A DNA stretch of 59,451 nucleotides, the filler included. It is 4 parts of 4 records of this genome, joined end to end, with 100 filler letters (N's around TTAATTAATTAA, not from the genome) between each part and the next. Parts side by side here need not be neighbours in the genome. Positions count along the whole stretch, not along the records: positions 21,874 to 45,205 come from SRR31156797_5877; 3 more parts are not named here. One strand, given 5' to 3'. The position numbers were made by a program, and so were the translations under genes. The notes beneath the pieces were generated by a model. That model was not told the origin of the DNA. It made no database searches and was given only the letters and a program-made list of their open reading frames with translations. Position 1 is the first letter of the stretch, and each line of letters begins with the position of its first letter. Of the stretch, positions 16,297 through 41,081 are shown piece by piece.

Positions 16297-16311
16297 TTAA
16301 GGTCCTTCATT

Positions 16312-16932: not shown

Positions 16933-16949
16933 AAATAGGAATACTTTTC

Positions 16950-17447: not shown

Positions 17448-17538
17448 AGATAATCCTTGATGATTTTTTATTATTATATCAAAATTTTTGTTTTTTTTTG
17501 TTATAATCCGCGAATTAATATATAAGCTAAGGTTTTAA

Positions 17539-21294: not shown

Positions 21295-21773
21295 AAGGTA
21301 GAGACTTTATCTCTTCCTGACTCTTTGGCTTTATATAAAGCCTTATCTGCACATATATAAAACTCTTTACTTTTCATATCTTCTTCTAAAAAAGCAACTC
21401 CACAAGATACTGTTATAAATGAAGAGATTTTACTGCTATCATGTCTAATATGAAGGTTTTTAACTCTCTCTTTAAACTCTGTAGCTAGTGTTATTGCCTC
21501 TTCTTTACTCTTAGGGTATAGTAAAACAGCAAACTCTTCCCCACCAAGTCTAAAGCTATAAGAATCAAAACCTTTAAAGAACTCTTTTAACGTGTTTGCT
21601 ACTTTATATAGTGCTTCATCACCTTGCTGATGTCCATATGTATCATTATAGTCTTTGAAGTAATCTATATCAATCATAAATAAAGAAAATAAACTATTTT
21701 TCTCTTTTGCTATTTTTATACCATCTTCTATTTTACTATTAAAATATCTTCTATTATAAAGTTTTGTTAATTC
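21291..21773 (-). CDS. Diguanylate cyclase (GGDEF) C-terminal part, 5'-truncated by the contig edge
   Basis: Frame is open from the contig end: ELTKLYNRRYF...MIDIDYFKDYNDTYGH...RLGGEEF...ADKALYKAKESGRD. Confidence 0.9.
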   Translation of the reverse strand, partial: ELTKLYNRRYFNSKIEDGIKIAKEKNSLFSLFMIDIDYFKDYNDTYGHQQGDEALYKVANTLKEFFKGFDSYSFRLGGEEFAVLLYPKSKEEAITLATEFKERVKNLHIRHDSSKISSFITVSCGVAFLEEDMKSKEFYICADKALYKAKESGRDKVSTF

Positions 21774-21873
21774 NNNNNNNNNNNNNNNNNNNNNNNNNNN
21801 NNNNNNNNNNNNNNNNNTTAATTAATTAANNNNNNNNNNNNNNNNNNNNNNNNNNNNNNNNNNNNNNNNNNNN
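21774..21873. other. Artificial contig linker
   Basis: 44 N + TTAATTAATTAA + 44 N. Confidence 0.98.
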
Positions 21874-22012
21874 TGCGAGGAGGAACGACGAAGCAATCTG
21901 TTACAATTAAATGGAACCAGATTGGCTTCGCCGAGCTTGAGCTTCGCTCTGCGGTTGCTTTGTCGCGCTTTGCCTTCGCTATGCTACGGCGAAAGTCGCT
22001 CCTCGCAATGAC
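21874..22012. repeat. Palindromic REP/MITE-like element cut by the contig start
   Basis: TGCGAGGAG...GAAGCAATCTG...CAGATTGGCTTC...CTCCTCGCAATGAC nested inverted repeats. Confidence 0.7.
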
Positions 22013-22142
22013 GTCTTTGAATTTTCTTGATTTTTCTATCATCTTGCTACAATTAATTTGTTTTCAGATTGTAGCAGACGATACTGAGGATAGCTTTTAC
22101 AGTATTCTCGACTTCCTGTTCACCGCAGGCTACGAATCTGTT

Positions 22143-22318
22143 ATCAGTGGCAGGTCTTCTGACTCTCCTCCGGTTTTCGACGCCTTCCCATTCTCCTGTA
22201 AAGAAAAGTGGCTTGTGGTCGATCCGTTAATGAGGATCACAGCAGCGGGAACTGTTGCCGAGTTTCACGGCATTCCCTTTTAATTCCCAGTGGAAATTCC
22301 ACGATGGAAACCAATGAT
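22143..22318 (-). ncRNA. Cobalamin (B12) riboswitch
   Basis: Minus strand reads ATCATTGGT...TAAAAGGGAATGCCGTGAAACTCGGCAACAGTTCCCGCTGCTGT...GCCAC...TGGGAAGG...GAGTCAGAAGACCTGCCACTGAT; B12 box and P1 pairing present. Confidence 0.92.
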
Positions 22319-22322
22319 GAAG

Positions 22323-22330
22323 CAAAGGTA
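22323..22330 (-). promoter_or_regulatory. Bacteroidota -7 promoter element (TAnnTTTG) for the riboswitch transcript
   Basis: TACCTTTG on the minus strand, directly 5' of the riboswitch. Confidence 0.7.
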
Positions 22331-22466
22331 AATTATTTTTGGAAATAAAAATATGAGAAATGATTTTTTAAAACATATTGAATCATGTAGATTTTAGAAT
22401 GTGTATAAATTAGGGTTTTCTGTTGTAATGCATCCTCAATTATGCTGTAAACATTGTAAAACTGAT

Positions 22467-22474
22467 TAAATTTG
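22467..22474 (+). promoter_or_regulatory. Bacteroidota -7 promoter element for sdhCAB
   Basis: TAAATTTG, 38 nt upstream of the sdhC ATG. Confidence 0.55.
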
Positions 22475-22512
22475 TTAGCAATGAATGAAAATAATCACAA
22501 AAAGTTATACAT

Positions 22513-23196
22513 ATGAGTAGCTTTCTTAACTCTTCGATAGGCCGCAAAGTACTGGTGAGCTTATCGGGTCTATTCTTAATGATCTTTTTATTGGTTCACC
22601 TTACAGTGAATCTTATGTTAATTTTCGATGATACAGGTGTGCTTTTTAACAAAGCAGCCCATTTCATGGCCACCAACCCAGCCATTAAAGTAATGGAACC
22701 TGTTTTAGCACTGGGTTTTATCATACATATTTTGTATGCATCCATTGTAACGTTGAAGAACTACTTGGCAAGACCTGCCAGGTATAATAAACGTAATTCG
22801 CAGGAGACAGGTGGTTGGGCATCAAGAAACATGTTCTTCTTGGGCTCTACTGTTTTTATTTTCCTAGTGATTCACGTTTGGAACTTCTTTTGGAAAATGC
22901 GTTTTACGGGTGATCCGTTACTAGACCATATCACAATTGATGGTGAGCAAATGGAGAATGCATATAATCTTGTTGCAACACTATTTAAAACAAGCTATGT
23001 GTATGGTGGAATTTACATTTTAGGTGCAATAGCACTTGGATTACACCTTTCACACGGTTTTTGGTCGTCATTCCACACTATAGGATGGAACAATGATATT
23101 TGGATGAAAAGACTAAGAAATGTGGCTATTGTTTATGCAGTAATTATTGCCGGTGGATTTATCTCAATTCCGGTTTACTATATGATATTCTTCTAA
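22513..23196 (+). CDS. sdhC: Succinate dehydrogenase/fumarate reductase cytochrome b subunit
   Basis: SSIGRK...GLFL...HL..NL, about five TM helices with conserved His, HLSHGFWS; first gene of the operon. Confidence 0.92.
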   Translation: MSSFLNSSIGRKVLVSLSGLFLMIFLLVHLTVNLMLIFDDTGVLFNKAAHFMATNPAIKVMEPVLALGFIIHILYASIVTLKNYLARPARYNKRNSQETGGWASRNMFFLGSTVFIFLVIHVWNFFWKMRFTGDPLLDHITIDGEQMENAYNLVATLFKTSYVYGGIYILGAIALGLHLSHGFWSSFHTIGWNNDIWMKRLRNVAIVYAVIIAGGFISIPVYYMIFF

Positions 23197-23208
23197 AATC
23201 TATTGGAT

Positions 23209-25149
23209 ATGAGTATAATAAAAACAGATATACCCGAAGGGCCTTTGGCTCAGAAGTGGTCAAAACATAAAGCCGACTTAAAAGTAGTAAGTCCGGCAAA
23301 CAAGCGTAAATTAGATATTATTGTAGTGGGAACAGGTTTGGCAGGAGCATCAGCAGCAGCCAGCTTCGCAGAGTTAGGATATAATGTGCTGAATTTCTGT
23401 TACCAGGATAGTCCTCGTCGTGCACACTCTATTGCTGCACAGGGAGGAATCAATGCTTCTAAAAACTATCAGAACGATAATGATAGCGATTATCGTCTAT
23501 TTTATGATACTATTAAGGGTGGTGACTATCGTGCCCGTGAAGCAAACGTGTATCGCCTGGCAGAAGTAAGTGGAGATATTATCGATCAGTGTGTGGCGCA
23601 AGGTGTTCCTTTTGCCCGTGAATATGGCGGAACGCTTGCTAACCGTTCATTTGGCGGCGTGTTGGTTTCACGTACATTTTATGCACGTGGTCAAACTGGT
23701 CAGCAATTACTTTTAGGTGCTTATGGAGCATTAAATCGTCAGATTGCAAAAGGAAATGTTGAGATGTATTACCGTCACGACATGCTGGATGTAGTAATGA
23801 TTGATGGTAAAGCTCGTGGGATTATTGCCCGTGATTTAAAAACAGGTGAAGTTAAACGTTTTGGAGCACATGCTGTTGTTGTTGCTACAGGTGGTTATGG
23901 AAATGTATTTTTCCTCTCTACAAATGCAATGGGTAGCAATGGTAGTGTAGCGTGGCAGTGTTATAAGAGAGGCGCATATATGTCGAATCCAGCCTTTGTG
24001 CAAATTCACCCAACATGTATTCCGGTACATGGTGATCAGCAAAGTAAACTGACGTTAATGTCAGAATCATTGCGTAATGATGGTCGTGTGTGGGTACCAA
24101 AAGACAAAGAAACAGTTGAAAAATTAAGGAAAGGTGAAATAAAAGCATCACAAGTACCTGAAGATGCTCGCGATTATTATTTGGAACGTCGTTATCCTTC
24201 ATATGGAAACCTTGTTCCACGCGATGTGGCTTCTCGTGCAGCTAAAGAACGTTGCGATGCCGGTTTTGGTGTAAATGAAACAGGAAAAGCAGTATACCTT
24301 GATTTTAAAGATTCAATCAATCGTCTGGGCAAGGATGTGGTTGAAGCGCGTTATGGTAACCTTTTCCAGATGTATGAAAAGATTACCGACGTGAATCCAT
24401 ACGAAGAGCCTATGATGATTTATCCGGCTATTCACTATACTATGGGCGGACTTTGGGTTGATTATAACTTGATGACTAATATTCCAGGATTATATGCTAT
24501 TGGTGAAGCTAATTTTAGTGATCACGGTGCAAACCGTTTGGGTGCTTCTGCCTTAATGCAAGGATTAGCTGACGGATATTTCGTTATTCCTTACACAATT
24601 GGTAATTATTTGGCAGATGAAATTCAAACGCCAAAAATCGATATTAATCATGAGGCATTTGCTAAAACGGAAAAAGAGATAACGGACAAGCTTGAAAAGC
24701 TGAAAAACATCAATGGTAAAACACCGGTTGATCATTTCCATAAAGAGTTGGGAAAAATTATGTGGGATAAAGTTGGAATGAGCCGGAATGAGAAAGAGTT
24801 GAAAGAAGCTATTGAAGAGATTAAAGCAATACGCAAAAAATTCTGGGAAGATGTACGCATTCCGGGAGAGCTGAATGAATTCAACCAGGAAATTGAAAAA
24901 GCCATGCGTGTAGCTGATTTCATTGAGATGGGCGAGTTGATGGCTCGAGATGCATTGGAGCGTAACGAATCATGCGGTGGACACTTCCGTGAAGAGTCGA
25001 AAACCGAAGAAGGCGAAGCTTTGCGTGACGATGAAAATGGAAATTATGTAAGTGCCTGGGAATTTAAAGGAGACGATAAAGATCCTGAGATGCACAAGGA
25101 GATGCTTAATTTTGAATTTGTAACTCCAACTCAACGTAGTTACAAGTAA
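23209..25149 (+). CDS. sdhA: Succinate dehydrogenase/fumarate reductase flavoprotein
   Basis: [32 protein letters not shown] and [11 protein letters not shown]. Confidence 0.96.
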
Positions 25150-25172
25150 TTTAATCTTAAAATCAGTGCTTT

Positions 25173-25934
25173 ATGGCAGACAAGATATTAAAAGAGATAA
25201 AAATTAAGGTTTGGCGTCAGAAAAACGCTAAAGCCAAAGGTAAATTTGAAACTTATACAGTTAGGGATATATCTACCGGTTCATCATTTCTTGAAATGTT
25301 GGACATTCTAAACGACCAATTGATTTTAGAAGGTAAAGACCCAATTGCATTTGACCACGATTGTCGTGAAGGTATTTGCGGTATTTGCAGCTTATATGTA
25401 AATGGCCGTCCACATGGTCCGGATGATGATGTTACGACTTGTCAGTTGCACATGCGTAAATTCAAAGATGGAGAGACTATCGTCATTGAGCCTTACCGAT
25501 CAAAAGCATTCCCTGTAATTAAAGATTTGGTTGTTGAGCGTAATGCATTTGATAAAATATTACAGGCTGGAGGTTATGTATCGGTAAATACTGGTGGAAT
25601 ACCAGATGGTAATGCTATTCCAATTAGTTCTGTTGATGCAGAAGCTGCAATGGATGCAGCTGCATGTATTGGTTGTGGTGCTTGTGTAGCTGCATGTAAA
25701 AATGCCTCGGCCATGTTATTTGTTTCAGCTAAAGTATCGCATTTAGCTCGCTTACCACAAGGTAAAGTTGAAGCTAAAGAGCGTGTAAAAGCTATGGTAG
25801 CTAAAATGGATGAGCTTGGATTTGGTAATTGTACCAACACAGGAGCTTGCGAAGCTGAATGTCCTAAAAGTATAAGCATTAGCAATATTGCTAAAATGAA
25901 CCGCGAGTATCTGGCGGCAAAGATTAGAGACTAA
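25173..25934 (+). CDS. sdhB: Succinate dehydrogenase/fumarate reductase Fe-S subunit
   Basis: [21 protein letters not shown] and [12 protein letters not shown]. Confidence 0.96.
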
Positions 25935-25954
25935 CTCTTTTATTTTAGATATAG

Positions 25955-25984
25955 AAAACCGAGGCTGAGGTCTCGGTTTTTTTT
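25955..25984 (+). terminator. Rho-independent terminator of sdhCAB
   Basis: AAAACCGAGGC-tgag-GTCTCGGTTTT followed by further Ts. Confidence 0.85.
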
Positions 25985-25988
25985 GTTT

Positions 25989-26073
25989 AACTCCGCTGGA
26001 GTTTGCAATTCATTTCGCTGCGCTCAGATGAATTTTCATACGGAGTTAGTCAAGTTCAACTCCTTCGGAGTTG
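25989..26073. repeat. REP-like cluster of short palindromes
   Basis: AACTCCGCTGGAGTT, AATTCAT...ATGAATT and CAACTCCTTCGGAGTTG. Confidence 0.55.
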
Positions 26074-26074
26074 T

Positions 26075-26108
26075 AAAAAAACACCGTCTCAATAAATTGA
26101 AACGGTGT
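26075..26108 (-). terminator. Terminator of the rubrerythrin gene
   Basis: ACACCGTCTCAAT-aa-ATTGAAACGGTGT preceded by an A-run, which is a U-tract on the minus strand. Confidence 0.7.
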
Positions 26109-26130
26109 AATTATAAAGGTATACTTAATT

Positions 26131-26706
26131 CTAATAATTCGTTTTTTCTAACTCGAAATAGGCTTGTGGATGTTCACAAATTGGACAGTTTCTAAGGGCT
26201 TTTTTACTTTCATGCACATGACCACATTTGCGACATACCCATTTTACTTTCTCTTCGCGTTCAAATACTTTTTCATTCTTTAAATTCTCAAGTAATTTGC
26301 GATAGCGTGCTTCGTGTTCTGCTTCTACTTTTGCAATTAATTTAAAAGCAGTAGCAACTTTTTTAAATCCTTCTTCTTCAGCTATTTTGGCAAATTCAGG
26401 GTAAAGTTCTTCCCATTCTTCATTTTCACCATCGGCTGCAGCTTTAAGGTTTTCGGCTGTTGTTTCAATAACTCCTGCAGGATAAGCAGCAGTAATTTCT
26501 ACCATACCACCTTCTAAAAACTTAAAGAAAGTTTTGGCGTGTTGTTGCTCTTGCATAGCTGTTTCTTGAAAGAATTCAGCTATTTGCTCATAACCTTCTT
26601 TTTTAGCTACTTTGGCCGCGAATTCATATCTGTTTTTTGCTTGTGATTCACCAGCAAAAGCTTTCAATAAGTTCTGCTCAGTACGTGTTCCTTTGATTGA
26701 CTCCAT
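26131..26706 (-). CDS. rbr: Rubrerythrin
   Basis: AFAGESQA, EQQHA, GENEEW and EAEHE diiron ligands; C-terminal CRKCG...CPIC. Confidence 0.95.
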   Translation of the reverse strand: MESIKGTRTEQNLLKAFAGESQAKNRYEFAAKVAKKEGYEQIAEFFQETAMQEQQHAKTFFKFLEGGMVEITAAYPAGVIETTAENLKAAADGENEEWEELYPEFAKIAEEEGFKKVATAFKLIAKVEAEHEARYRKLLENLKNEKVFEREEKVKWVCRKCGHVHESKKALRNCPICEHPQAYFELEKTNY

Positions 26707-26862
26707 GATGTGTAATTAATATTGTTTTCGTATTAGATATTGGAGCTCGAAGATAGATATAATAACCATTTCCAAAAAGGAGGTTTGTCAGTTTTTGCGG
26801 AAATAGGAAATGGAGCACAGTGCTTGTGTGAAAGTAACGTTTTGTTATGCTTTCGGTATAAT

Positions 26863-28044
26863 TTACTGATACATTAACCGCCGCCAAACCCATTCAAGTG
26901 GGCCATATTGGTATTGTTTCAGATAGATTTTGCAATATATGACTTGTATGGCGAAAAATAGAACAGCTGAAATGACTAACTCAACTGGAGTAAAACTTCC
27001 AAATAGTCCAAAACCGTAACTATACATTATAGTGGTAAAAATCACGGAATAGGTGAGGTAGTTGGTTAGCGACATGCGACCAACAAATCGCAATGGAGAA
27101 AGTATTTTTTGAAAGAAAGTGCTTTTTGATCCAACAAGAATTATAAGTAAGTAACTCGAAATAAGAAAAATATTGGTGATTTCGAACACTCCCATGAAAA
27201 GTGCTGTAAAATAGGGGTTTGTTTTTGCGTCGGTTACGTAATTTAGCATTTCTATTGCATAGGTATTCAGTAGAATTCCTACTAACAAAAATGATAGGCC
27301 AATGATGAGAAACTTACGTCTGGATTGGTTGATTTTCTCTAAAAAATTTTGTTTTTGAAATACATATCCGGCAAGAAACAACCCCAAAATTTTAGGGAAA
27401 TAATATATCAGGTTGATGTTTCGAAAGGCATAATATTCTGCTAATCGTAGTTTGAAAATTTCTACAATAGATCCATGAGCATAGGTTTCTTTAATAGCAT
27501 CCATACTAATGTTGCTTGTAGAACTTAGCGCATCGGGCAATGATGGGATGATTACATTGAGGGCGATATAAAACACAGACGAGAAGTAAATGAGCATACT
27601 TAAAATAAGTAAAAGTCGGGGCTTTAAGTTTCTTGCGGAAAGCAATATCATCCCTAATAATGCATAGGGTAACAAGATATCGCCTGCCCAAAAGAACATT
27701 ATATGTAAAATACCAAACCCTAAAAGAATGATTAAACGGCGGAGATATAATCTTGTGAACTCAGACTCTTGTGCTTTATATTTGGCAAACATTATTGCAA
27801 ATCCAACTCCGAAGAGGAATGAGAACAGACCTATAAACTTATCAGACCCATAATTAATCATTAGGTTAAAAATGGTGCTATTCAATGGATCTTCGAACTG
27901 ACTGTAGAATCCACTAAAATCAAAAAACGATGCATTGTATCCAAATAAATTGACCAATAGTACACCAAAAAGTGCAAATCCTCGTAGGATATCAATTTGC
28001 ACAATTCTGTTTTGTGGTTTAACCGGAGCGAATTCACTATTCAT
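26863..28044 (-). CDS. DUF418 (YeiB-like) membrane protein
   Basis: RIVQIDILRGFALFGVLLVN, FSFLFGVG, GDIL, GRMSLTNY and GPLEWVWR. ATG at 28044 preferred. Confidence 0.9.
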   Translation of the reverse strand: MNSEFAPVKPQNRIVQIDILRGFALFGVLLVNLFGYNASFFDFSGFYSQFEDPLNSTIFNLMINYGSDKFIGLFSFLFGVGFAIMFAKYKAQESEFTRLYLRRLIILLGFGILHIMFFWAGDILLPYALLGMILLSARNLKPRLLLILSMLIYFSSVFYIALNVIIPSLPDALSSTSNISMDAIKETYAHGSIVEIFKLRLAEYYAFRNINLIYYFPKILGLFLAGYVFQKQNFLEKINQSRRKFLIIGLSFLLVGILLNTYAIEMLNYVTDAKTNPYFTALFMGVFEITNIFLISSYLLIILVGSKSTFFQKILSPLRFVGRMSLTNYLTYSVIFTTIMYSYGFGLFGSFTPVELVISAVLFFAIQVIYCKIYLKQYQYGPLEWVWRRLMYQ

Positions 28045-28093
28045 GGTAGGTGTTTTTATCAAAGGTAGGCTAAAAATATAATAAAATGGATAG

Positions 28094-28214
28094 TAGTCTC
28101 GGCGTGAATGCTTTATTTATGGTTTTATATGCTCCAACCTTTTCGATTTTTCATAAATAATTCACACCGAGACTAGTGAAAATGGAAAGGCACGAGCAAA
28201 ATGCTCGCGCCAGC
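28094..28214. repeat. Intergenic inverted repeats (REP-like) downstream of gatD
   Basis: TAGTCTCGGCGTGAAT...ATTCACACCGAGACTA (28094-28175) and GCACGAGC-aaaat-GCTCGCGC (28190-28210). Confidence 0.55.
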
Positions 28215-28306
28215 CTATCTAATATCTTAGATCCAAGATCTGTTTCTTTATCTATCCCGCTTAAAATCAAGAGAATAACTTGAAACATGGGACTTGAAAC
28301 CTGAAA

Positions 28307-29692
28307 CTATTTCCTCACTTTCTGCACAAACTCCTCAACTTCAGGAACTCCACCTTGATAAACGAGGTATCCGTTATATGGCTCACGTTCAGTGATTTCA
28401 TCGTTGATTGGTGTGAGCATCATCTCTTTTACTTTTTCAGGATCATCGGTTTGTCCCAGTGCCCAACCCAATTTTATGAATGCCACTTCAGGTAACATAT
28501 TGCCTGCAGGAATAATACCTCGTGCCATCATATCGCGTCCTGTATCATATACAAACATGTGCACATAACCCCAGATGGTTTGGAGTGTCATGTACATGTG
28601 TACCCCTTTCTTATGAGCCCGCTCAATGGCCGGATAAAGTTCTTTGTTGACGTGTCCCAGTCCTGTACCGACAATTACAATTCCCTTGTAACCAGCATCA
28701 ACCAAGGCATCGATAGTGTCTGGTTTCATACCCGGATAGTAATATAGCATGGTTACTTTATCGCTGAAATAAGGTAATATTTTAACATCGCGGTCTTTAC
28801 GACGTGGCTTGTATGATTTATGAATGGTTTCAATTCCATCTCTGCGAATCATGGCCAAAGGTGTATGTCCAATAGTACGGAATGTAGAACGATACGATGA
28901 GTGCATTTTGCGCACACGTGTTCCTTTGTGCAATAATCCATAATCGTCTGACGTAGGTCCAAACATTGAAACCATTACCTCAGCAATATCACCATGGCCG
29001 GCAGCATACATGGCATGCATCAGGTTCAGTGCAGCATCGGAACTAGGTCGGTCGGATGAACGCTGCGATCCTACAAGCACAATTGGTACAGGAGGATTTT
29101 GAACCATAAATGTTAAGGCAGCTGCTGTATGATGTAATGTATCGGTACCATGACCAATTACAATTCCGTCAATTCCTTTTTCAATCTCTTTTCCGATAGC
29201 TTTTGCTAAGGCAATGTATTGGGTAGGGCCCATATTTTCGCTGAATACAGCAAAAACTTTTTCGGTTTCGAGGTTGCAAATATCAGCCAATTCAGGCACT
29301 GCACCATAAAGCTCACCCGGTGAAAAAGCCGGGATTACGGCTCCTGTGCGGTAATCTAATCGCGAAGCAATGGTTCCACCGGTTCCAAATAATTTTACGT
29401 TTGGTAAACCTTTGGAGTATGGAAATTCTTGTTCCGGAATGGCGTAATTGGCTTTTGAATAGCCCACCTCTTTCATTGTTGTAATAGTGTTGATATCAAT
29501 TCCAATGTTGTATCCGGTGGCAATTTTCATTACAATGTGTTCATCGTCCTGGTGTTCGGCGCGAGGAAGTACTGTTCCTTCGAAATTTCCACGGGTTGTT
29601 TCCATTTCGCATTTTCCCCAAACACGCACATTGTATTTTTGTAAAACAGCCAGGGCTTTTCCTTTGTATCCCTGAAATATATCGTTATCCAT
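28307..29692 (-). CDS. gatD: Glu-tRNA(Gln) amidotransferase subunit D (archaeal-type)
   Basis: GatD N-terminal barrel (EGTVLP...IVMKIATGYNIGID) plus asparaginase-like core TGGTIASRLDYRTGAV, HGTDT, GSQRSSDRPSSDA, GTRVRKMH and GTGLGHV. Confidence 0.93.
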   Translation of the reverse strand: MDNDIFQGYKGKALAVLQKYNVRVWGKCEMETTRGNFEGTVLPRAEHQDDEHIVMKIATGYNIGIDINTITTMKEVGYSKANYAIPEQEFPYSKGLPNVKLFGTGGTIASRLDYRTGAVIPAFSPGELYGAVPELADICNLETEKVFAVFSENMGPTQYIALAKAIGKEIEKGIDGIVIGHGTDTLHHTAAALTFMVQNPPVPIVLVGSQRSSDRPSSDAALNLMHAMYAAGHGDIAEVMVSMFGPTSDDYGLLHKGTRVRKMHSSYRSTFRTIGHTPLAMIRRDGIETIHKSYKPRRKDRDVKILPYFSDKVTMLYYYPGMKPDTIDALVDAGYKGIVIVGTGLGHVNKELYPAIERAHKKGVHMYMTLQTIWGYVHMFVYDTGRDMMARGIIPAGNMLPEVAFIKLGWALGQTDDPEKVKEMMLTPINDEITEREPYNGYLVYQGGVPEVEEFVQKVRK

Positions 29693-29698
29693 GATTGG

Positions 29699-31672
29699 CT
29701 AGTTTTTCTTAGTTAATTCTTTCATTAATACATCGTAAGGCATATTTCCCATTGCACGGTGACGCAATTCACCCATTATCCAATTGGTTTCAGCTTCCGG
29801 TGTTTGTTTTTTACCGATTTCCCTATATTTTTCACGAAGGAAATCTACTGGTGCCAAAATCTCTTCTTTGTCATGAGCTTTATAACGGATATCTGTAAGC
29901 ACCGACTCAAATTGCATTTGAGGTTGCTCATAAATCATAGGAAGCATAGGATAAAGAATGTTGCTTTCCAGTTTTTGATCCTTTACAAATTTGAATAGTC
30001 CATATACAATATGATAATCAAAATCACGACCGCGCTTATAATGTCCTTCTACAAATTTGAGATAATGTCCAAAGAAAGTGCCCGTAAATTTTGGGTTGAA
30101 TTTGAGTTTCTTTATTACATTTTCTATATGCGGATAAAGGTTTTTACTCAATATATAAGTGAAAGTATCTTCAGGAATACCCCATTTTTTCAATTGCTTG
30201 TAGCGATCAATAACATCGCTTGGCATGTTTTTCTTGAGGTTTTCTATATAATCATTAGAAAGCGGAATTGGGGCCGAATCAGTATCAGGGTACATGCGAT
30301 CTGCACCTGGCAAAACGCGCTCAAAAATAGTAGATCCATCTTCGAATGATTTTCGTGTTTCCTGAGGAATACCTTCCATTGCCATTTCGCAACGTTCTTG
30401 TATTACTTCAAGGGCTGTTTTGATGTCATCCTCTGGACCGCGGAATATCATTAAAGCATCTTTTTTACCAGCTTTGATGATTTTTTCCATACTATTCCAG
30501 AATTCAACATCAAAAGTGGGCTTCAGTTCTTCAGTGTGATACATGTTTGGTCTTTCCAAACAAGCAATAACCTTAAGTCTATCTGCTAATTCATCAGCAA
30601 ACATTTTTCCAGGTTGGGTAAAATGTGATAGGATACCCTCGAAATCAGGCAATTTAACCAGAACCAATTTTTCACATTGATTGAGATATTGTTTCTTGAA
30701 TTTATCGGATATTTCAATGGTATCTGTATTGAGAACTTTATGGCTAATTTCCCATTTTTTAGCCTCTATTTTACGTTTTTTAAGTTCGTCGCGCACCGCA
30801 AGTAATGCCCACTGGCGGAATGACTCCACGTGTGTTAGCTCAGGAATCCATTTGGTGTGTGCTACTCCTTTGATTTCCACACGAGTACCACCTTTGCAGC
30901 TTACGTTCACATCTTGTCGTCCGGCACCCATTCCGGTAAGTACTTTTCCTGTGCTGCGGTTAAGGAATCGAATGTAGTCACATGTTTCTTTTACCTCATC
31001 AGGGTTTACCATGTCCGGGTAGGTCACTGTTTCAATAAGTGGCATACCTAAACGGTCTGTTTTATAAACCCGGTTGTGGCCAATATCTGATATTTCTCGA
31101 CATGAGTCTTCTTCAATACTAAGCTGGATAAGGCGTACTGTTTTTTTCTTCAATTCAATTGCACCTTCAACACCAAGTATGGCAGTGCGCTGAAATCCGG
31201 TTGGAATACTGCCGTCCAGATATTGCTTACGTGTAATATGTACTTCGCCTACCACATTAAGTTTGGAAAGTAATGAAATTTCAAGTGCAGTTTCCAATGC
31301 TTCTTTGTCCATTAAAAAGGGTGGTGTATCATCTACTTCATAGGTGCAGGCATTTTCATTATTGATACGATAAAAGATGTTTTTGCGGGTTTTAAATTCC
31401 ATTAGCGCAGTTCCATCATATTCACCCAGCTCACTCAGTGTTGGGCGCATGTGGCGAATAAGTTCTGCATCAAAATCATCGTCATCGTGGTAAATGCCTG
31501 CCGGGCAGCGGCAAAATAATTTATATTTTGTTTTAAGTTGTTGGTGAACTTCCAGTCCCGACATAAAACCAATACGGTCGTAGTCTTTTTGGGTGGCTTC
31601 TTTCCGGTTTACGTAGCCAATTTTTTTGCGGGTAGCTTCGTAATTGGCTTTGGCATCGAAAGTGTCCTTCAT
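29699..31672 (-). CDS. gatE: Glu-tRNA(Gln) amidotransferase subunit E (archaeal-type)
   Basis: GLEVHQQL..KLFCRCP, RPTLSELGE, DGS..GFQRT, EED, DRLGMPLIE, RSTGKV...RQDVNVS..GGTRVEIKGV, GAD-like insert and LPGADRMYPDTD. Confidence 0.93.
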   Translation of the reverse strand: MKDTFDAKANYEATRKKIGYVNRKEATQKDYDRIGFMSGLEVHQQLKTKYKLFCRCPAGIYHDDDDFDAELIRHMRPTLSELGEYDGTALMEFKTRKNIFYRINNENACTYEVDDTPPFLMDKEALETALEISLLSKLNVVGEVHITRKQYLDGSIPTGFQRTAILGVEGAIELKKKTVRLIQLSIEEDSCREISDIGHNRVYKTDRLGMPLIETVTYPDMVNPDEVKETCDYIRFLNRSTGKVLTGMGAGRQDVNVSCKGGTRVEIKGVAHTKWIPELTHVESFRQWALLAVRDELKKRKIEAKKWEISHKVLNTDTIEISDKFKKQYLNQCEKLVLVKLPDFEGILSHFTQPGKMFADELADRLKVIACLERPNMYHTEELKPTFDVEFWNSMEKIIKAGKKDALMIFRGPEDDIKTALEVIQERCEMAMEGIPQETRKSFEDGSTIFERVLPGADRMYPDTDSAPIPLSNDYIENLKKNMPSDVIDRYKQLKKWGIPEDTFTYILSKNLYPHIENVIKKLKFNPKFTGTFFGHYLKFVEGHYKRGRDFDYHIVYGLFKFVKDQKLESNILYPMLPMIYEQPQMQFESVLTDIRYKAHDKEEILAPVDFLREKYREIGKKQTPEAETNWIMGELRHRAMGNMPYDVLMKELTKKN

Positions 31673-31913
31673 TTTAAAGTAATTTAGTGAGGTTCGGAGA
31701 GGAGAATAATACTCTCATCCTTTATTTGCTCTTAAAAGTAATCAACACTTTTGCAATTGCCAAATTACCGTAACTTTTTTAAAATTAACTATTGAGGATT
31801 GATATTTTGAGTTATATTTGAGGTTCCCAAAATTTTCCACTCCAATATTTGAAATGGTATTTTTTTAAAAATGGTACAGATTGTGTGCTATCCATTTTAA
31901 ATAGATTTAAATT

Positions 31914-33053
31914 ATGTATAAAATTTACTACCTGTCAATTTTAGTTTCAACAATATTTGTTAACTCAGTTTTTGCTCAAAGGAGCATTGATTTTGGAACC
32001 GATACTACTTTTGAATTAGCTACATGGAATATTGAACATTTTCCCAAGAATGGTCAAACTACCATTGATTACGTATCACTTTTAATTGAAGAAATGGATA
32101 TTGATTTATTTGCATTGCAGGAAATTGAAAGCCAGTCGAGTTTCAATTCATTGGTTGCAAATCTGGATGAGTTTGAAGGTTATTGGGCTTATGATCAGTA
32201 TGCACCATTGGCAATTTTATACAAAAGTAATCTTGTGGAATTGAATAATACTTACAGAATTCTTGCATCCTATTCTCGTGAATTTCCAAGAGCTCCTTTA
32301 GTGGCAGAAATAACTGTTCGAGGCGATTCTTATGTGATAATTGTAAATCATTACAAATGTTGTGGCGATGGCATAATAGATGAGGGTGATTTGTGGGATG
32401 AAGAAAAGCGCAGATATGACGCATCCGTTTTATTGAAAGATTATGTCAATACGCATTATGCAGATGATCGTGTTATTATGTTAGGTGACTTTAACGATGA
32501 GATATTGGATGAAACTGAAAATAATGTATTTCAACCTTTTCTTGATGTTCCGACTGAATTTGCATTCGCAGATTTGTCTGTGGCCCAATCTTCAGCTTCA
32601 AATTGGAGTTATCCTTCATGGCCATCTCATTTAGATCATATTTTAGTCACTAATGAGGTATTTGAAGAATTTGAAAATGGCATTGCTGATGTGGAATGTT
32701 TAAAACCTGATGAGCTTATACCGGGTGGGTGGGCCGTTTACGACAGTGATATTTCTGATCACAGACCTGTTGCGTTACGTATGGCAATGGTTGCTGATAC
32801 AGTTGGATTAGTTGAAAGTAATATTATAGATTTAGCAGTATATCCTAATCCTGCTAAAGACTTTGTACAGATTTCTTCAAGTGTTTCAAATATGAAGGTA
32901 TCTTTTTATAATACAATTGGAATTTTAGTAAATGAAATTCAATCGTCTGGTAATAGTGTTATTGATATATCAGCGCTGCAATCCGGATTTTATTTCATGA
33001 AAATTGAATCAGAAAATTTCAACATAACAAAAAGATTGGTAATAGAGCGCTAA
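31914..33053 (+). CDS. Endonuclease/exonuclease/phosphatase (DNase I-like) protein with T9SS C-terminal sorting domain
   Basis: Signal peptide, ATWNIE, LQEI, GDFND, LDHI and SDHRPV; CTD VYPNP...SGFYF...KRLVIER; TATATTTG -7 element at 31813-31820. Confidence 0.9.
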   Translation: MYKIYYLSILVSTIFVNSVFAQRSIDFGTDTTFELATWNIEHFPKNGQTTIDYVSLLIEEMDIDLFALQEIESQSSFNSLVANLDEFEGYWAYDQYAPLAILYKSNLVELNNTYRILASYSREFPRAPLVAEITVRGDSYVIIVNHYKCCGDGIIDEGDLWDEEKRRYDASVLLKDYVNTHYADDRVIMLGDFNDEILDETENNVFQPFLDVPTEFAFADLSVAQSSASNWSYPSWPSHLDHILVTNEVFEEFENGIADVECLKPDELIPGGWAVYDSDISDHRPVALRMAMVADTVGLVESNIIDLAVYPNPAKDFVQISSSVSNMKVSFYNTIGILVNEIQSSGNSVIDISALQSGFYFMKIESENFNITKRLVIER

Positions 33054-33057
33054 TTTA

Positions 33058-36000
33058 CTATCCGGCATCAACCAATTTGAAAGTGAAGCTAAACCCAAAG
33101 TTTATCTCTGTTGTTTTGAATGTTGTTTGTATTTTCGGATCTTTCAATGTGTAATCAAGAAATGCTCTTAATTCTAAGTTTTTCGAGAAGCGATAATCAG
33201 CTGTGAATCCAAGTTTATATACTAATGTTCCACTTACTAATTCTGTAAATCCGTCATCAGGTTTGTGAACATATTTTACGTCATCTTTAACACTGAAATC
33301 AGCACGCAACTCTACGGGGCTATCAAATTTGCGTTGCCCTCCACCTCTTGTTCTGAAAACCAATGTAAGGTTATCAAATCGGTACCCACTTCCAAGGACT
33401 AATTCTGTTCTACGACTTTCAGCTAAATTGTTGTCAGAAGTGTTTAAGCTAATTGTGCGACTTTTATTAAATGCTACCCTTGTTGTGATATTGCTTTTCC
33501 AGGTCATGTTTACTTCAAAAAACGGCATAAAGTCTTCGCTTATGGTAATTTGATTTATATTGTATCTGGCTGCAAACATGGTTGAGTCAGCATTTCTTAT
33601 AGATGAAAAAGCTTCTTCAGCACTTATGTCTCTAATCCAATCTGGATTATTACTAAATCCTCCCATGGTGAATACCCCTTTATAGCTATGAAGTACTTTA
33701 AAGTTTCTAAATTTGCGTTTGAACCATCCAAATTGCATAAATCCATCATATTCAACCCGCCAATCAGGTCTCAATAGTGACATAATTGGTTTTGCTGCTT
33801 TAAGCACTACATTGTTTGCTGAAGGGCCATCAACATATGCCGATATAAATGCCGGAACAGTAACTTCTTGAGAAAATGCCGGGTAACCATCTGGAAATCC
33901 ATTAATTCCCGATTGGCCTGCATAGTTTCCTAATGCATCTATTCTTTGTTGCTCAAGCCGTTTTGCTATAACCAAACGATTATTGATAAATTCCCGATAT
34001 ACATTGTTTTCGTATGTTCTATCATCAATTTTGTCGAAAGTACTGCTGAATGTCCAAACAGACATACTCCAGTTCCCTGTTGTACTTTTGGAAGTTGGGT
34101 TGTCAAAACGAGAAGTACTGATTGTATTATCTCCATAAGCCAAATAATAGCGATCTGTATTTCTTGATCTTGCAAATTGAGATTTCAATTTTATTTCCAG
34201 GCCATTTAAAGGTTCAAAAGTTCCATTAATGGTTAAATTTTCCTGAAATGTCATTGTGTATGGTTGAATGATTGAGTTATCAAGATCTTCAGACAACCAA
34301 CCATTTTCAATAACACGTTCCATAAAATCAATATCAGAAAGTCCAAACACGTATTCCCATCCGGGCTTTTGCTCTCCATCATTGAAATTCATACCCATTG
34401 ATGTTGGAGCATACTTAAATCCACTCGCAATTGATCCATTATTTTGAGTGTAATTGAAACGTACAGATTTCAATCCGGTAGTAATTCTTACAAGATACTC
34501 TGTGGCTATTTGGAATGGGCTTTGGCTACGCTCCTTTTCACCTGTTATTGTGAGACTAACTCCTTCTAAATCCTGATCAGGTTTTAACAGGATACGTTTT
34601 TCATCTACAATTTCAAATGGTACTTTTATTTCTTTTTTATCTGGACCTGCGATTAGGACTTTAATTTTCTCTGTGCCAAGTTTATGATAAACTTTCTTTT
34701 CTTCCCCTGCTTTCAAGTCAATCTTTTCTTTGGTATAAGTAACTTCGAACTTTATTTTCTCTTTAAATCGGGTCGGCAACGGTTTTTTGAACTTTTTATG
34801 TATTTGATCAATGTATTCAACATTTTTGAATAACCTGTCAAAGCTCAAGTTTAAGGCAGCATTGTATCTGTTTGAATTAGATAAATCATTACCCGGATTA
34901 AGGGCACTATCAGATAAAATTGGAGCTCTTCGCCAGTTGAATAGACCGTTATAACCTGCTGTGGCATTCATCCATTTTAATCCCGGAATTTTATTAATTG
35001 GCACCTGCCATGTAGCATCAAATGTTTGATTGTAATCGGTCATTCTACCTAATTGTTTGATGCTGGTTATAATTGAGTCTTTTGCATTAGTATAATTGTC
35101 TTTTCCTCTCTCAACAACTCCGGCAGGTTCATCAATTTGAGCTGTAACTTTGGCGTTGTAACTAAGTTTTATGCTCTTGGATAAATTGTAAACTAACCCA
35201 TAATTTCGATCCCAACGGAAATCTTTATCGTAAGTCGGCAGGAATATCTGATCCGGTATATTTAAATTTCTGCGCTTCATTTTGTTGTACTTACGTGTTA
35301 CAACAGTTGAGAATGAATATTGAGATGGGGCATAATTCAGATTGAAGTCTTTAATAAGTCCAAAATATTTGGCACTAAGTTTTATGTTTTTTAGAGGTTC
35401 CCATGGTTTCACTCTGTTATTAAATACATAGTTTACAGAACCGGTATGTCTTTTTTGATTATGGTAACGAAGATTGATATTTCGGTCGTATACCTGTGTG
35501 AAGGCATAAGAGAAAGTCCAGTTGCTAACATCATAAAATCTGGGTTTCTCACCGGCTTTACCAAACCTAACTCCGGTAAAGTTTAGACTTTTACGCATGT
35601 TATATTCACGGGCAACCCGCAAGAGTTCTTCTTGCTCGTCACCTGATAAGACTTTCAGTGCATCTTCCATTTTAATATCCTGATCAAGAGGATTGTATTC
35701 CGGATTAATAAAAGTTTCCGCATATCCAAAGTACATTGGTATTTTAATACCTGATTCCTGTGGGAAAAACTGGCCTAACTGGAGACTTGTATTGATATCG
35801 TACTGATAAATTTCATCTAATTGACGTTCATTTAATTTCTCTTCTAATCCACCAAAACCCGGTTTTGATGTGGCTCCTGCAACTGTTACTGATCCTAAGT
35901 CTGCCAGCTGAGCTGTTATGCGAGCATTGGCCGCCCAACCACCTTCCTGATCAAATTCGGTAAGTCGCAATTCATTTACCCATATTTCTCCTGATTGTTC

Positions 36001-39000
36001 TTGTCTATCGTCTCTTGGGTTTCTGACTCCAATTGTAAATGTAACAACGTCGCTGAGACTGGGGTTACCTCTAACTTTTACTTTGTTAGAGCCATCCATA
36101 ACTTGATATTCTGTAAGCAAACTTACACCAGATTCCTGATCTCCCAATAGCTGATTTCTTTCAAGTTTGGTATCTGTAAATAGTGAAAGTGGAATGTTTA
36201 ATTCATTCTCACTTGGCCAAACCATTTTTCTATCACCACTATTATTGGAATAGCTTCCCGGAGGAGTAACTTTCACAGGAATTTCATATTCGTAATAGTT
36301 TTCGCGTATATCTGTTCCTAGCCTTACAAAAACAGTTAAATCGTCATCATTCAAGTCGTAGTCTTCTAGCTTTTCAGCATGAATAAACATTTTTAGACGT
36401 TTGTACTGACGCATATCAAAACGAATGTTCTTGTAAATGGCTTTGGCAAAACCATCCGGTAAATCTCGTACTCGCATGCTGATTGACTGCTCATTTAATT
36501 GACGCAATTGACTATTTGAGGGATCAATTACACGATCTACATCAGGGGGCATTACATAGTTAACAGGAGAGCGTTGTCCATTCTCTTCAATATTTACCGT
36601 AGAGACTTCAAATTGGGTGTTACTTAGATCAATATCATCATCAACTACTTCACCACCTTCTTCTAAAACATAATCATATTTTCGCCATTCTCCACGTATG
36701 AAATTTAACTCAGCGAATCGTAAAGTAACATCTCTTGTGAATCCGGTCATATACATTCTTATGAATCGAATCGATCTGAAATCACTAATATTACCTACTA
36801 CTAAATCGGGTTCTTCAATCGGTATTTTGAATTGATACCAGGTAACGGTTTTTGAATCACCGTTGGGCATATCTACCTCAATTTCGTTTTCATCAACGAT
36901 GTATTTTTTCATTTCATCAAGGTTTTCCTTACTGAGGTCTACCTTATATTCATAATAGGCATCAATTTGGTTAAGGGTATTGTCATCGTTGATATCTTCG
37001 TTGTTTGGTATTGAGGTTTGCATCCTAACTTCAGAAGCATTTGATGAAGGGGTGTTACCGTGCGGGTTAGTGAAATATCGATAACGATTAATAAGATTGT
37101 TTTTATAAAATGAGTTGCCATCAAAAAAGCCTTCTTTATGATAGAGGAAATCATCTTGCGAAGGGTCTGCTAATAATTCATTTCTAGCAGTTTCAGTTAG
37201 GTTGCCTAAAAAAGTATCATCAAAAACATTGTTATTTATAAAAAACTGAACCTCTCTCTCGTTTGTTAATCCATCATAACCCACATCTTGTTGGTCACGT
37301 CCATCATCTTCAAATCCTGTGGTTATGGTTTGTTTGTTTGAGACATAACCCCAGGCAGTAGAGTCCATATTAACGGTGCTTCCATCTTTTGGAATGGCAT
37401 TTTCCACAGAGCGTCTTCCATCTTTAAGTATATCTTCAGAGATATTTCCCAAATTGATATAAAGCGCCGGATTAGGATCGTTGCGCACAATTCCATCTAA
37501 TTCATCTTGCGCATAAGGGTCCATCATCCAAAATTCAATAAACTCTATGTTTGATTCTTCAAAATCACTGGTGGATACATTTCTTTGAATACCTGCCCAA
37601 CGCTCGTCTGTGAAAAGTAGTGAATCAGTTGAGGAAACTCTTTTATCGTAGTTATATGGCCCTCTTTCACTAGGAAAAAATGAGAGATTAAATACACTTA
37701 ATGCATTATAAACGCCCTGTTCAGGATCACGATTGGGAAAAATCTGATTTTCTTTAACCTGAAAGGTGTTCAGGCTGGATATGCCATTATCTGAAACAGG
37801 CGAGTTGCCCTCATAATATAATGGATCGATAAAATACCATGATAGTTGTGCTCTGTTTCTATTATAGTTGTAGATATCAGCACCTGATGCTTCATAATCT
37901 TCAATAAATCTTTTTGGTGTACTGGCAAGAAACCAATAGTAGGGCTCTTTGAGGGTGATGTCCGCTGTGGCACCTTCAAAATCATCCAGGTATGCTTCAC
38001 CTGTATGTTTAATTGCCTTATTATGACCAGGTTTTAAATATGCAAATTCTGCTGATGCTATGATTTTGGAAGGAGCTTTTGTTTCTATAAAAGGGAGCTT
38101 ATCAACCAGTTTGGTTAATAAAGGAACCTCCTTTTCATAATTCACATTTACACCCATAATGGTGTTAGAAATTGGCTCGCTACCAACATTAACCTTCTGT
38201 GTGAGAGGTCTTTCAGTGAGATTTAAAATAGATCCTCCAAACATCAGATCTTCGTTTACACGGTACTCCATAGTAGCACCCAGCAACGTTTTAGATTGAA
38301 TGCTAAATAGTGTATTACTCTCTAATGAAATATTAATTGGTGTTCCACTGGATAATAATCCTTGATCTAGGATTTTTACACGACCTAGATAATAGTCTAC
38401 CTTATAGTGAACATTTTCAGTCAACTCCATACCACCCGCGGTAACTTTAACAGAACCTTTGGGAATATTAATTGCATTCAGCGGAATTTCACTTCCTGTT
38501 GATGATTTGTATGTTCCCTGAATGGAAAACTTATTTTTCTCGGTAATCTGCTCGGCAAATGTTTTGGTTGAATCATACAATACGTTGTATGTAAATTGAT
38601 CTGCTTGAGAAAGATATTCTTCGTTATTAGGATTATTGTTTGTGAAGACTTTTTCTAAGTGAGACCCAAATGGTTCAAGTACAGGAAAGATTACGTAGCC
38701 TCTTGAAGCATTGATGGTAATACCTTCTTCAAAGTCAAAAATACCATCACCATTGGGAGCAAAGTTTCCTTGAGCATTCATTCTGTCAAGGTTCATCAGT
38801 TTTAAAAGTGTTACTCCTTCTACGTATTCGTTATCGGTGGGTAATGTAAATACATCTGTACCAACAGCCACATCGTTATACATCACATCCAACATAAAGT
38901 CTTCCCGGCTCACACTGTAGGCATCTAATTTATAGATGTTTTTCATCATTAAATCCCACGATTTATGTCTTGGAGAGAAACTGGTTGGTTTTAATAGTTT

Positions 39001-40476: not shown

Positions 40477-40499
40477 AATCTTTCCTTAATTTATTGTTT

Positions 40500-41081
40500 C
40501 TATAACTTCTTCAACGCTTGCTTGATAATATCTTCAACGGATAATCCAGGATCGTTTTTTAATAGTTGACCCATAACTTTCTCCACTGGTTTTTTGGCAA
40601 AACCAAGCATCATCAATGCAGATAACGCTTCTTCGTTTGTTGTATTGCCCTGATGAGTGAATATTTCACCCGAATCTTCACCAACTTTTACTTTATCCTT
40701 TAAATCAACTACAATTCTTTCTGCAGAGCGCTGCCCAATACCTTTTATACTTTTTAATGCAGCAACTTCTTCATTTACAATTGCACTGATAAGTTGGTTA
40801 GGAGGCATGGATGATAGCATCATGCGCGCTGTATTTGCTCCAACGCCTGAAACACTAATCAATTGGCGAAATAGTGTCCGCTCATCTTCTGACGAAAACC
40901 CAAAAAGCTGTTGGTTATCTTCTCTATAAATGGCATGAACTAATAATTCCTTCTCTTCTGATTCTTTTAAATCACTATAAGTGGTCAAAGAAATATTGAG
41001 TAAATATCCGACTCCATTGACATCAATAACACAGTGAGCGGGAGAAAGCCTTGTAATTAAGCCTCTTATATATTCAAACAT
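40500..41081 (-). CDS. ruvA: Holliday junction branch migration protein RuvA
   Basis: MFEYIRG, VNGVGY, LISVSGVG, IKGIGQRSAERI and EALSALMMLGF; start corrected to ATG at 41081; TAGTTTTG -7 element at 41109-41116 (minus strand). Confidence 0.95.
   Translation of the reverse strand: MFEYIRGLITRLSPAHCVIDVNGVGYLLNISLTTYSDLKESEEKELLVHAIYREDNQQLFGFSSEDERTLFRQLISVSGVGANTARMMLSSMPPNQLISAIVNEEVAALKSIKGIGQRSAERIVVDLKDKVKVGEDSGEIFTHQGNTTNEEALSALMMLGFAKKPVEKVMGQLLKNDPGLSVEDIIKQALKKL

Follow-up and report, generated by a model that had tools for sequence, protein, structure and literature searches.

A GatDE-type amidotransferase in Bacteroidales belongs to a large bacterial clade and may make asparagine on tRNA

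In reviews published between 2008 and 2022, GatDE is regarded as an archaea-specific enzyme, and on this understanding it has entered arguments on how glutamine joined the genetic code and on the content of LUCA. The window analysed here, a stretch of DNA of 59,451 nucleotides, carries an apparent gatE-gatD operon among bacterial genes. This raises the questions of whether the pair really is GatDE, how it came to be in a bacterium, and which reaction it could carry out there. A sequence-only reading had proposed an archaeal-type operon acquired across domains, giving its host either the archaeal glutamine route or an enzyme repurposed for some other amidation.

The window consists of four pieces joined by N44-TTAATTAATTAA-N44 spacers at 12216-12315, 21774-21873 and 45206-45305, and the two genes lie in one of them (Table 1). 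The earlier statement that they share a contig with sprA, a T9SS cargo gene and sdh genes holds for this piece, but not for the window as a whole. The piece encodes SdhA/SdhB, rubrerythrin, a DUF418 protein, GatD, GatE, an Exo_endo_phos protein bearing a T9SS Por_Secre_tail, SprA, RuvA and an OMP.

Table 1. Features of the gatDE locus, in window coordinates.
Feature	Position	Strand	Description
gatDE-bearing contig piece	21874..45205	.	23,332 nt, bounded by N spacers, bacterial flanking genes
Terminator-like hairpin	28189..28211	-	10 pairs, 7 G-C, then TTTCCATTTT; ~96 nt 3' of gatD stop
gatD, asparaginase-type glutaminase subunit	28307..29692	-	intact ORF, 461 aa
gatE, kinase/amidotransferase and tRNA-binding subunit	29699..31672	-	intact ORF, 657 aa
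Intergenic region 5' of gatE, presumed promoter region	31673..31913	-	241 nt, divergent from the T9SS-cargo nuclease gene

A window of four concatenated contigs could harbour a chimeric assembly, or archaeal contamination fused to bacterial DNA, and the piece at 12316-21773 does originate from, or is common to, a different low-GC genome. However, gatDE lie within a single piece with bacterial genes on each side, and their GC content (0.37-0.41) is the same as that of the flanks. A separate assembly of the source run (X1) returned one 23,332-nt contig of uniform word depth (182) that shows 0 differences from the window across the compared 21874-41873. The order sprA...gatE-gatD...rubrerythrin...sdhB is found again in an independent Salinivirgaceae MAG, and relatives with 65-93% identity are present in many Bacteroidales genomes and in a cultured Salinivirga, on a contig of 4.8 Mb. 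The GatE of the cultured Salinivirga cyanobacteriivorans is 84% identical. We therefore regard an artefact as extremely improbable. The host of gatDE is a bacterium of the Bacteroidota, as had been read from the flanking genes, and is Salinivirgaceae-like, and the locus is a settled one rather than a fresh insertion: the absence of transposase and integrase noted before extends to all nine flanking ORFs scanned around gatDE. The genome nominally nearest to the window (G001) was rejected as kin, its 99% identity being confined to window 12316-20000+; because nothing else in the window matches it, its lack of GatDE says nothing about the host.

In the region upstream of gatE, inspection by eye gave only near-matches to TAnnTTTG. 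A small contig of an unrelated marine run (X3 record 30; 31557-31735, 0 differences) spans the gatE start together with this upstream region. The hairpin downstream of gatD is a likely end of the gatE-gatD unit, but is only suggestive as such, because terminator-like sites in the region are no more numerous than expected by chance (4 observed versus 3.2 expected). Contigs of an RNA run (X14) cover the nuclease gene and sprA and almost nothing of gatDE, which gives no expression reading either way.

The two ORFs are intact, 6 nt apart and on the same strand, as described before, and their products were compared with NCBIfam models of GatE, GatD, GatB and asparaginases at the curated equivalog cut-offs. 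GatD reaches 498.7 bits with TIGR02153 (cut-off 324) and 497.9 bits with NF003217 (cut-off 310). It falls below the cut-offs of the type II asparaginase model (174.4 bits; 314.3) and of the AnsA/AnsB equivalogs (125-146 bits; 376-506), the broad type I asparaginase subfamily model being the sole matched asparaginase model for which it does not. Its Pfam domains are PF18195 GatD_N (residues 35-70), PF00710 Asparaginase (98-292) and PF17763 Asparaginase_C (312-425), and against solved archaeal structures it scores 389.5 bits (2d6f_A) and 380.7 bits (1zq1_A). Both structures have counterparts of its motifs GTGGTIAS, HGTDT, RSSDRPSSDA and RKMH at the aligned positions, and TGGTIAS, HGTDT and RKMH, taken to hold the catalytic Thr, Thr-Asp and Lys of the asparaginase fold, are identical in the two chains.

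GatE reaches 475.9 bits with NF003107 (cut-off 456), in an alignment of residues 28-655 of 657 with model positions 3-626 of 630, and 416.1 bits against TIGR00134 (cut-off 319.55), while all six GatB models are far under their cut-offs (the best at 122.5 bits, cut-off 338). The best matches to solved structures, 2d6f_C (308.5 bits) and 1zq1_C (293.6 bits), start at query residue 30, this GatE being ~29 residues longer at its N terminus than the solved archaeal chains. The GatB_N model has 277 positions and its match extends from residue 38 to 477, which implies a large insertion; 2d6f_C and 1zq1_C align across this insertion, and PF02938, which stands for a likeness to AspRS/GAD, is recorded for some relatives. 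The GatB_Yqey tail domain of Pfam (PF02637) has no match in this protein, and the alignments to solved GatE end at residues 491-539. On these profile scores and alignments we assign the pair to the tRNA-dependent amidotransferase GatD plus GatE, and not to AnsA plus GatB. The sequence-only reading was thus right in its essentials here: a GatD with the N-terminal barrel and catalytic motifs, and a GatE, distinct from GatB, with a large insertion.

The pair is far from unique to this contig. We sampled 201 species genomes of the host's order, the Bacteroidales, to which the aaRS inventory is confined, and GatE exceeds its curated cut-off in 91 of them (~45%). The Bacteroidales GatE sequences form one clade within a wider clade, and an acquisition peculiar to the contig, as first supposed, is contradicted by both results. 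gatDE is kept as a unit, gatD coming after gatE on the same strand in 22 of the 23 loci; the one exception is a genome whose gatD (499.9 bits) is encoded ~340 kb away from gatE. Neighbouring genes were discarded as a clue to function, as none beyond gatD recurs in more than five of the 23 loci. There are no tRNA genes in the window; the related loci include one with a tRNA-Asn (L015) and none with a tRNA-Gln.

Organism-named relatives in the wider clade are all bacterial (10/10 in one set and 1/1 in another), under the names KSB1, Latescibacteria, Calditrichia, Krumholzibacteria, Aminicenantes, Desulfobacterota and Rhodothermaceae. The bacterial GatE clade has an SH-aLRT support of 100 (28 rows; all supports are from a quick IQ-TREE search only), and its stem is long, at 0.35-0.59 changes per site. 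The GatDE pair is a member of this large bacterial clade, and neither a recent nor a private transfer from archaea. Of the inter-domain acquisition proposed earlier, what stands is that a transfer of GatDE from archaea to bacteria is possible; yet a tree in which the archaeal sequences form a single clade, sister to the bacterial one, is not rejected by the AU test (p-AU 0.70), and the tree constrained to archaeal monophyly scores 19 log-likelihood units higher. Heimdallarchaeota, sister to the bacterial clade with support of 94-95 in two trees, were considered as donor and rejected, because archaeal monophyly survives that same test. Because reciprocal monophyly of the two clades is not rejected, GatDE could, on the trees, be older than the divergence of the two domains. 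Sheppard and Soll are said to have speculated on the presence of GatDE in LUCA. Our literature search for bacterial GatDE found no paper, and this very large bacterial branch is apparently undescribed.

Turning to function, the canonical role would be the amidation of Glu-tRNA(Gln) produced by a relaxed GluRS, which would either supplement GlnRS as a second source of Gln-tRNA(Gln) or clear away mischarged tRNA. All characterised GatDE enzymes amidate Glu-tRNA(Gln), and for those of archaea it is the only substrate (PMC2330236). GatD and GatE both exceed the cut-offs of equivalogs defined for Glu-tRNA(Gln) amidotransferase, and five GatE-positive genomes lack both GlnRS, even at E 1e-20, and GatB. 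However, GlnRS is encoded in 191/201 genomes of the order and in 3/3 of the window's nearest kin, there is one GluRS gene per genome with no second copy, and no GluRS column co-varies with GatE (best overlap 0.29). All 39 of 39 GluRS sequences have Arg at the position aligned to Arg358 of the T. thermophilus enzyme, which we take to be the discrimination site. The five carriers without GlnRS and GatB were rejected as evidence for a glutamate route: they are scattered on the GatE tree (5 changes, the same as in shuffles), with GluRS unchanged in four (the other, G112, has no GluRS match), and they fit the expectation for incomplete MAGs. This role would also leave the distribution of asparagine synthetases, described below, unexplained. 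The archaeal glutamine route is weakened by the coexistence with GlnRS and by a single GluRS that bears no sign of relaxed specificity, and we consider it unlikely, if still a serious contender. Nor does the description of GatDE as a signature of Archaea, tied to the absence of GlnRS and to a non-discriminating GluRS, agree with the bacterial flanks, the frequency of GlnRS and the invariant Arg.

The inventory of the relatives points towards asparagine instead. AsnRS is encoded in 194/201 genomes and GatB in 11/201. The AsnB equivalog occurs in 6/91 GatE-positive versus 59/110 GatE-negative genomes and AsnA in 11/91 versus 57/110, so that at least one of the two is present in 16/91 versus 78/110 (Fisher p 1.5e-14, not phylogeny-corrected) and neither in 75 of the 91 carriers. 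When AsnB-like matches of any kind are counted, 8/21 GatE-positive and 1/20 GatE-negative genomes have neither these nor AsnA. GatE and AsnA/AsnB are both labile on a marker tree of 40 genomes (at least nine and at least seven changes, respectively), and an independent-pairs test, with only four well-supported pairs, is not significant (trait b opposite 1.4, same 0.1, equal 2.5). GatE, GatB, AsnA and AsnB are all missing from 31/201 genomes; other routes or auxotrophy therefore exist.

Since GlnRS and AsnRS are common, GatB is rare, GluRS is single and AsnA/AsnB are scarce where GatE is present, we favour tRNA-dependent asparagine synthesis, the conversion of Asp-tRNA(Asn) to Asn-tRNA(Asn), as the usual role of GatDE in the clade, and rank it above the canonical Glu-tRNA(Gln) role; we hold it tentatively, at slightly less than an even chance. 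The complementary distribution with asparagine synthetases lends support to the part of the earlier proposal that envisaged another amidation. To our knowledge, and within our literature search, activity on Asp-tRNA(Asn) has never been reported for any GatDE. There is a precedent for the AspRS: in a bacterium that has AsnRS, GlnRS and GatCAB but neither AsnA nor AsnB, a lone bacterial-type AspRS does not discriminate (PMC4206432).

Several candidate correlates among the synthetases were tried and rejected. No AspRS column divides 20 GatE-positive from 20 GatE-negative genomes (best overlap 0.25), an anticodon-loop position showing only a bias (D in 16/20 versus 6/20, respectively). An archaeal-type non-discriminating AspRS exceeds the cut-off in 0/41 genomes, and loss of AsnRS is not enriched with GatE, two of the six genomes without an AsnRS match being GatE-positive.

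The window's own lineage may differ from the usual carrier. Its nearest kin, G002 (outside the 201-genome sample) and G003 (inside it), both encode AsnA, and for this reason GatDE is probably a second, redundant route there. Redundancy with GlnRS, AsnRS and, in these kin, AsnA is also what might be expected if the system had been repurposed more radically, for instance with GatD working on its own as an asparaginase/glutaminase or with the two proteins together amidating a non-tRNA substrate; the long stem of the bacterial clade and the unmatched tail domain of GatE could be read in the same way. Against this, the full-length GatE model covers nearly the entire protein, both subunits are retained whether linked or unlinked, no conserved neighbour suggests another pathway, and a separate asparaginase of ~350 aa is present in the carrier genomes checked. 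We judge such repurposing improbable.

If tRNA-dependent asparagine synthesis is the usual role, gatE and gatD would encode a functional heterodimer-type tRNA-dependent amidotransferase. The single bacterial-type AspRS, presumably non-discriminating, would make Asp-tRNA(Asn); GatD would free ammonia from Gln or Asn, and GatE would phosphorylate the side-chain carboxyl of the mischarged aminoacyl-tRNA and then amidate it, yielding Asn-tRNA(Asn). We infer Asp-tRNA(Asn) as the usual substrate from the direct charging of tRNA(Gln) and tRNA(Asn) in these bacteria, and action on Glu-tRNA(Gln) may persist alongside. Taken as one statement, that GatDE is not an archaeal signature, that it forms a deep bacterial clade, and that in bacteria it is an Asp-tRNA(Asn) amidotransferase providing the sole asparagine-making route in most carriers, the proposal is doubtful.

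The premise that GatDE is found in archaea only needs revising, because nearly half of the sampled Bacteroidales species carry it intact, together with GlnRS and AsnRS, and names in databases hint at further phyla. The near-exclusive distribution of GatDE and AsnA/AsnB offers a hypothesis that can be tested in cultured Salinivirga. If it is true, this would be the first GatDE with a role in asparagine synthesis, and the prediction of asparagine prototrophy from Bacteroidales genomes would change.

The closest known systems are the archaeal GatDE enzymes of Methanothermobacter thermautotrophicus (2D6F) and Pyrococcus abyssi (1ZQ1), which have the same two-subunit architecture and match the same equivalog models. 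The likeness includes the N-terminal barrel and asparaginase fold of GatD with its catalytic motifs, and the GatB-type core and large insertion of GatE, perhaps with its C-terminal tail. The window-type GatDE differs in its bacterial host and separate clade, and its GatE scores only ~300 bits against the solved archaeal chains, compared with 518-660 bits for two archaeal-type representatives. It coexists with GlnRS and AsnRS, whereas archaeal organisms with GatDE lack GlnRS, and its substrate may differ too. In this genomic setting it resembles GatCAB, which makes asparagine on tRNA in Bdellovibrio, Thermus and Deinococcus, bacteria in which AsnRS and GlnRS are present too (PMC4206432): there, as among the Bacteroidales carriers, an amidotransferase stands beside both synthetases, AsnA/AsnB are mostly missing, and AspRS is single and of bacterial type. 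The enzymes themselves are built differently, with an asparaginase-type GatD as the glutaminase in GatDE where GatCAB has the amidase-type GatA, and with GatE in place of GatB and no GatC.

The gatE–gatD pair of the window is a real and intact bacterial GatDE. Both genes lie on the minus strand and are spaced by 6 nt in the ORF listing. In Pfam terms, the GatD protein has its family's N-terminal domain ahead of the two asparaginase domains; it scores 498.7 bits against the GatD equivalog model (cut-off 324) and stays under the cut-offs of the models for AnsA/AnsB and for type II asparaginase. Its partner passes two GatE equivalog models (475.9 bits, cut-off 456; 416.1 bits, cut-off 319.55), with all GatB models falling far short of cut-off. 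Among solved structures, the top matches are the archaeal GatDE complexes of Methanothermobacter thermautotrophicus (2d6f) and Pyrococcus abyssi (1zq1), with which the TGGT, HGTDT, RSSDRPSSDA and RKMH motifs of GatD align, as do the catalytic core and large insertion of GatE. Equivalog scores, domains and structure matches thus agree with the sequence-only reading, which had seen two intact ORFs and named them GatE and GatD; the HMM comparison it had suggested, GatD with AnsA and GatE with GatB, came out the same way. A strong hairpin with a T-run follows about 96 nt past the gatD stop.

Three spacers split the window into four concatenated pieces, and gene neighbourhood across these points is without biological meaning. 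The low-GC piece (25–30%) is 99% identical to contig C63 of comparison genome G001, and may have been mis-binned from a different organism or be a mobile block that both share. No match to G001 was found in the remaining pieces; since only this piece is common to both, G001 was rejected as a guide to the gatDE host.

A chimeric join at gatDE is effectively excluded. In sequencing run X1, a possible source of the window, a different assembler yielded a single contig of exactly the same length as the gatDE-bearing piece (23,332 nt; word depth 182), with 0 differences across the 20 kb compared. An independently assembled Salinivirgaceae MAG (L009), whose GatE is 92% identical, has the same gene order as the window, sprA...gatE-gatD...rubrerythrin...sdhB. 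Unrelated marine metagenomes contain small near-identical contigs over parts of gatE, one of which spans its start and upstream region. By Pfam, the flanks encode SdhA, SdhB, rubrerythrin, DUF418, RuvA, an Exo_endo_phos protein with a T9SS sorting tail, SprA and an outer-membrane barrel; the nine flanking ORFs scanned include no transposase or integrase, as had been noted from the sequence.

Elsewhere on this piece, the DUF418 membrane-protein gene adjoining gatD is missing from the otherwise syntenic L009. A cobalamin riboswitch (100.6 bits) faces the left end of the piece, and the gene under it is either cut by the contig end or lies within the short stretch left over. A marine metatranscriptome (X14) has contigs that match sprA and the gene of the T9SS-cargo nuclease, with 0–3 differences, so this RNA library includes a close relative.

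Table. Features of the window and of gatE neighbourhoods in other genomes
Feature	Sequence	Position	Strand	Remark
gatE	window	29699-31672	-	intact ORF, 657 aa, upstream
gatD	window	28307-29692	-	intact ORF, 461 aa, downstream
gatDE-bearing piece	window	21874-45205
Low-GC piece	window	12316-21773
Spacers (N44, TTAATTAATTAA, N44)	window	12216-12315, 21774-21873, 45206-45305		100 nt each
DUF418 gene	window	26863-28062	-
Cobalamin riboswitch	window	22132-22330	-
X14 matches	window	31984-32498, 32958-33070, 37262-37512
ORF between gatE and gatD	L015	9967-12114		715 aa
ORF between gatE and gatD	L016	6711-7943		410 aa
tRNA-Asn(GTT)	L015	15559-15633
Unlinked gatD	G078:C1	1105439-1106641		sole unlinked case among 23 loci
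Unlinked gatE	L030	7914-9893		same case

Databases already annotate relatives under the name GatE. Organism names are attached to 17 of the 120 best GatE relatives (65–93% identity), all 17 Bacteroidota and including the cultured Salinivirga cyanobacteriivorans. We sampled 201 species-representative genomes of the order of G003 (Bacteroidales), counting those over each family cut-off: GatE was present in 91, GatB in 11, GlnRS in 191 and AsnRS in 194. In 22 of 23 neighbourhoods gatD follows gatE on the same strand, with a gap of -17 to 385 nt in 20 of these and another ORF between the genes in two; in the remaining genome (G078) a full, intact GatD lies about 340 kb from an intact gatE. Any other neighbour is shared by at most five of the 23, and the pair is a self-contained module maintained over a long time. 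At a single locus, gatD is followed some 2 kb further downstream by a gene for tRNA-Asn(GTT), likely by chance.

A GatE search of 1.84 billion representatives returned 599 proteins at E 1e-30 or better. Both trees (FastTree, 143 rows; quick IQ-TREE search under LG+C20 PMSF, 61 rows) unite the Bacteroidales sequences in a single clade (support 100), which sits within a larger one (support 100) that counts 28 rows in the 61-row tree. We infer the larger clade, whose rows are mostly nameless with few named members, to be bacterial, because one representative is itself named Deltaproteobacteria and all 10 organism-named proteins among the 120 matches listed for a profile of 18 representatives are bacterial (KSB1, Latescibacteria, Calditrichia, two Aminicenantes, Krumholzibacteria, Desulfaltia, Rhodothermaceae, a Clostridiales MAG and 'bacterium'). 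Representatives of the other large clade score 518–660 bits against solved archaeal GatE, versus about 300 bits for the window's GatE. Three of 10 basal representatives looked up have organism names: Heimdallarchaeota, Thorarchaeota and Odinarchaeota.

A Heimdall-cluster row is sister to the bacterial clade (support 94–95 in both trees), with a single, long-branched GatB outgroup. Forcing the archaeal rows together gave a tree that the AU test did not reject (p 0.70) and whose log-likelihood is 19 units above that of the free quick search. The bacterial clade could stem from an early transfer from archaea, the inter-domain acquisition first proposed, or from a deeper split.

In passages of published work, GatDE is termed 'an archaeal signature protein' (PMC2330236, 2008) and placed 'only in archaea' (PMC8007984, 2021). 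Full-text literature with few subscription journals, covering GatDE in Bacteroidetes, GatDE and horizontal transfer in bacteria, GatDE in papers since 2016, and tRNA-dependent asparagine in Bacteroidetes, yielded no paper on bacterial GatDE; an earlier description may exist. The clade to which the window's GatDE belongs is very large; databases annotate it, but the searched literature does not describe it.

The canonical role of GatDE requires Glu-tRNA(Gln), which seems the less likely physiological substrate here. Carriers possess GlnRS, and their GluRS is single-copy (a match in 39 of 41 genomes, two full copies in none). No GluRS column separates 18 genomes with GatE from 17 without, and all 35, plus four more, have Arg at the position aligned to Thermus thermophilus Arg358, which we take to be a discrimination determinant. 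GlnRS and GatB both went undetected in five carriers, whose scatter over the GatE tree fits incomplete MAGs. The sequence-only reading had offered a glutamine route or another amidation, and the relatives' inventory, with near-universal GlnRS and one GluRS, weakens the former.

Asparagine synthetases, in contrast, differ between genomes with and without GatE: the AsnB equivalog occurs in 6/91 versus 59/110, AsnA in 11/91 versus 57/110, and either in 16/91 versus 78/110 (odds ratio 0.09, Fisher p 1.5e-14, kinship ignored). Long AsnB-like paralogs (600–690 aa) are about equally frequent in both sets. Across a marker tree of 40 genomes the two traits are labile (at least nine and at least seven changes), and an independent-pairs sign test, with only four well-supported pairs, was not significant. 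For AspRS the only signal is a bias at a single position of the anticodon loop, no archaeal-type AspRS was found in the 41 genomes of the order examined, and AsnRS loss is not enriched among carriers in the 201-genome sample. All of GatE, GatB, AsnA and AsnB are missing from 31 of the 201 genomes. Many of these are small (~2 Mb), and asparagine auxotrophy, MAG incompleteness or use of a different route may account for them. GatDE looks redundant in the window's lineage, because its nearest kin (G002 and G003) carry AsnA alongside GatDE, GlnRS and AsnRS.

From these genome comparisons we tentatively favour Asp-tRNA(Asn) over Glu-tRNA(Gln) as the physiological substrate. Bacterial GatDE would then form asparagine on tRNA, in the place that GatCAB holds elsewhere. 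According to passages of PMC4206432, Bdellovibrio, Thermus and Deinococcus keep GatCAB in addition to AsnRS and GlnRS and use it to form asparagine on tRNA; a bacterial-type AspRS that is the only one present can be non-discriminating there. GatDE carriers have a like configuration, an amidotransferase kept with AsnRS and GlnRS, and it is for this likeness that we propose the same job for bacterial GatDE.
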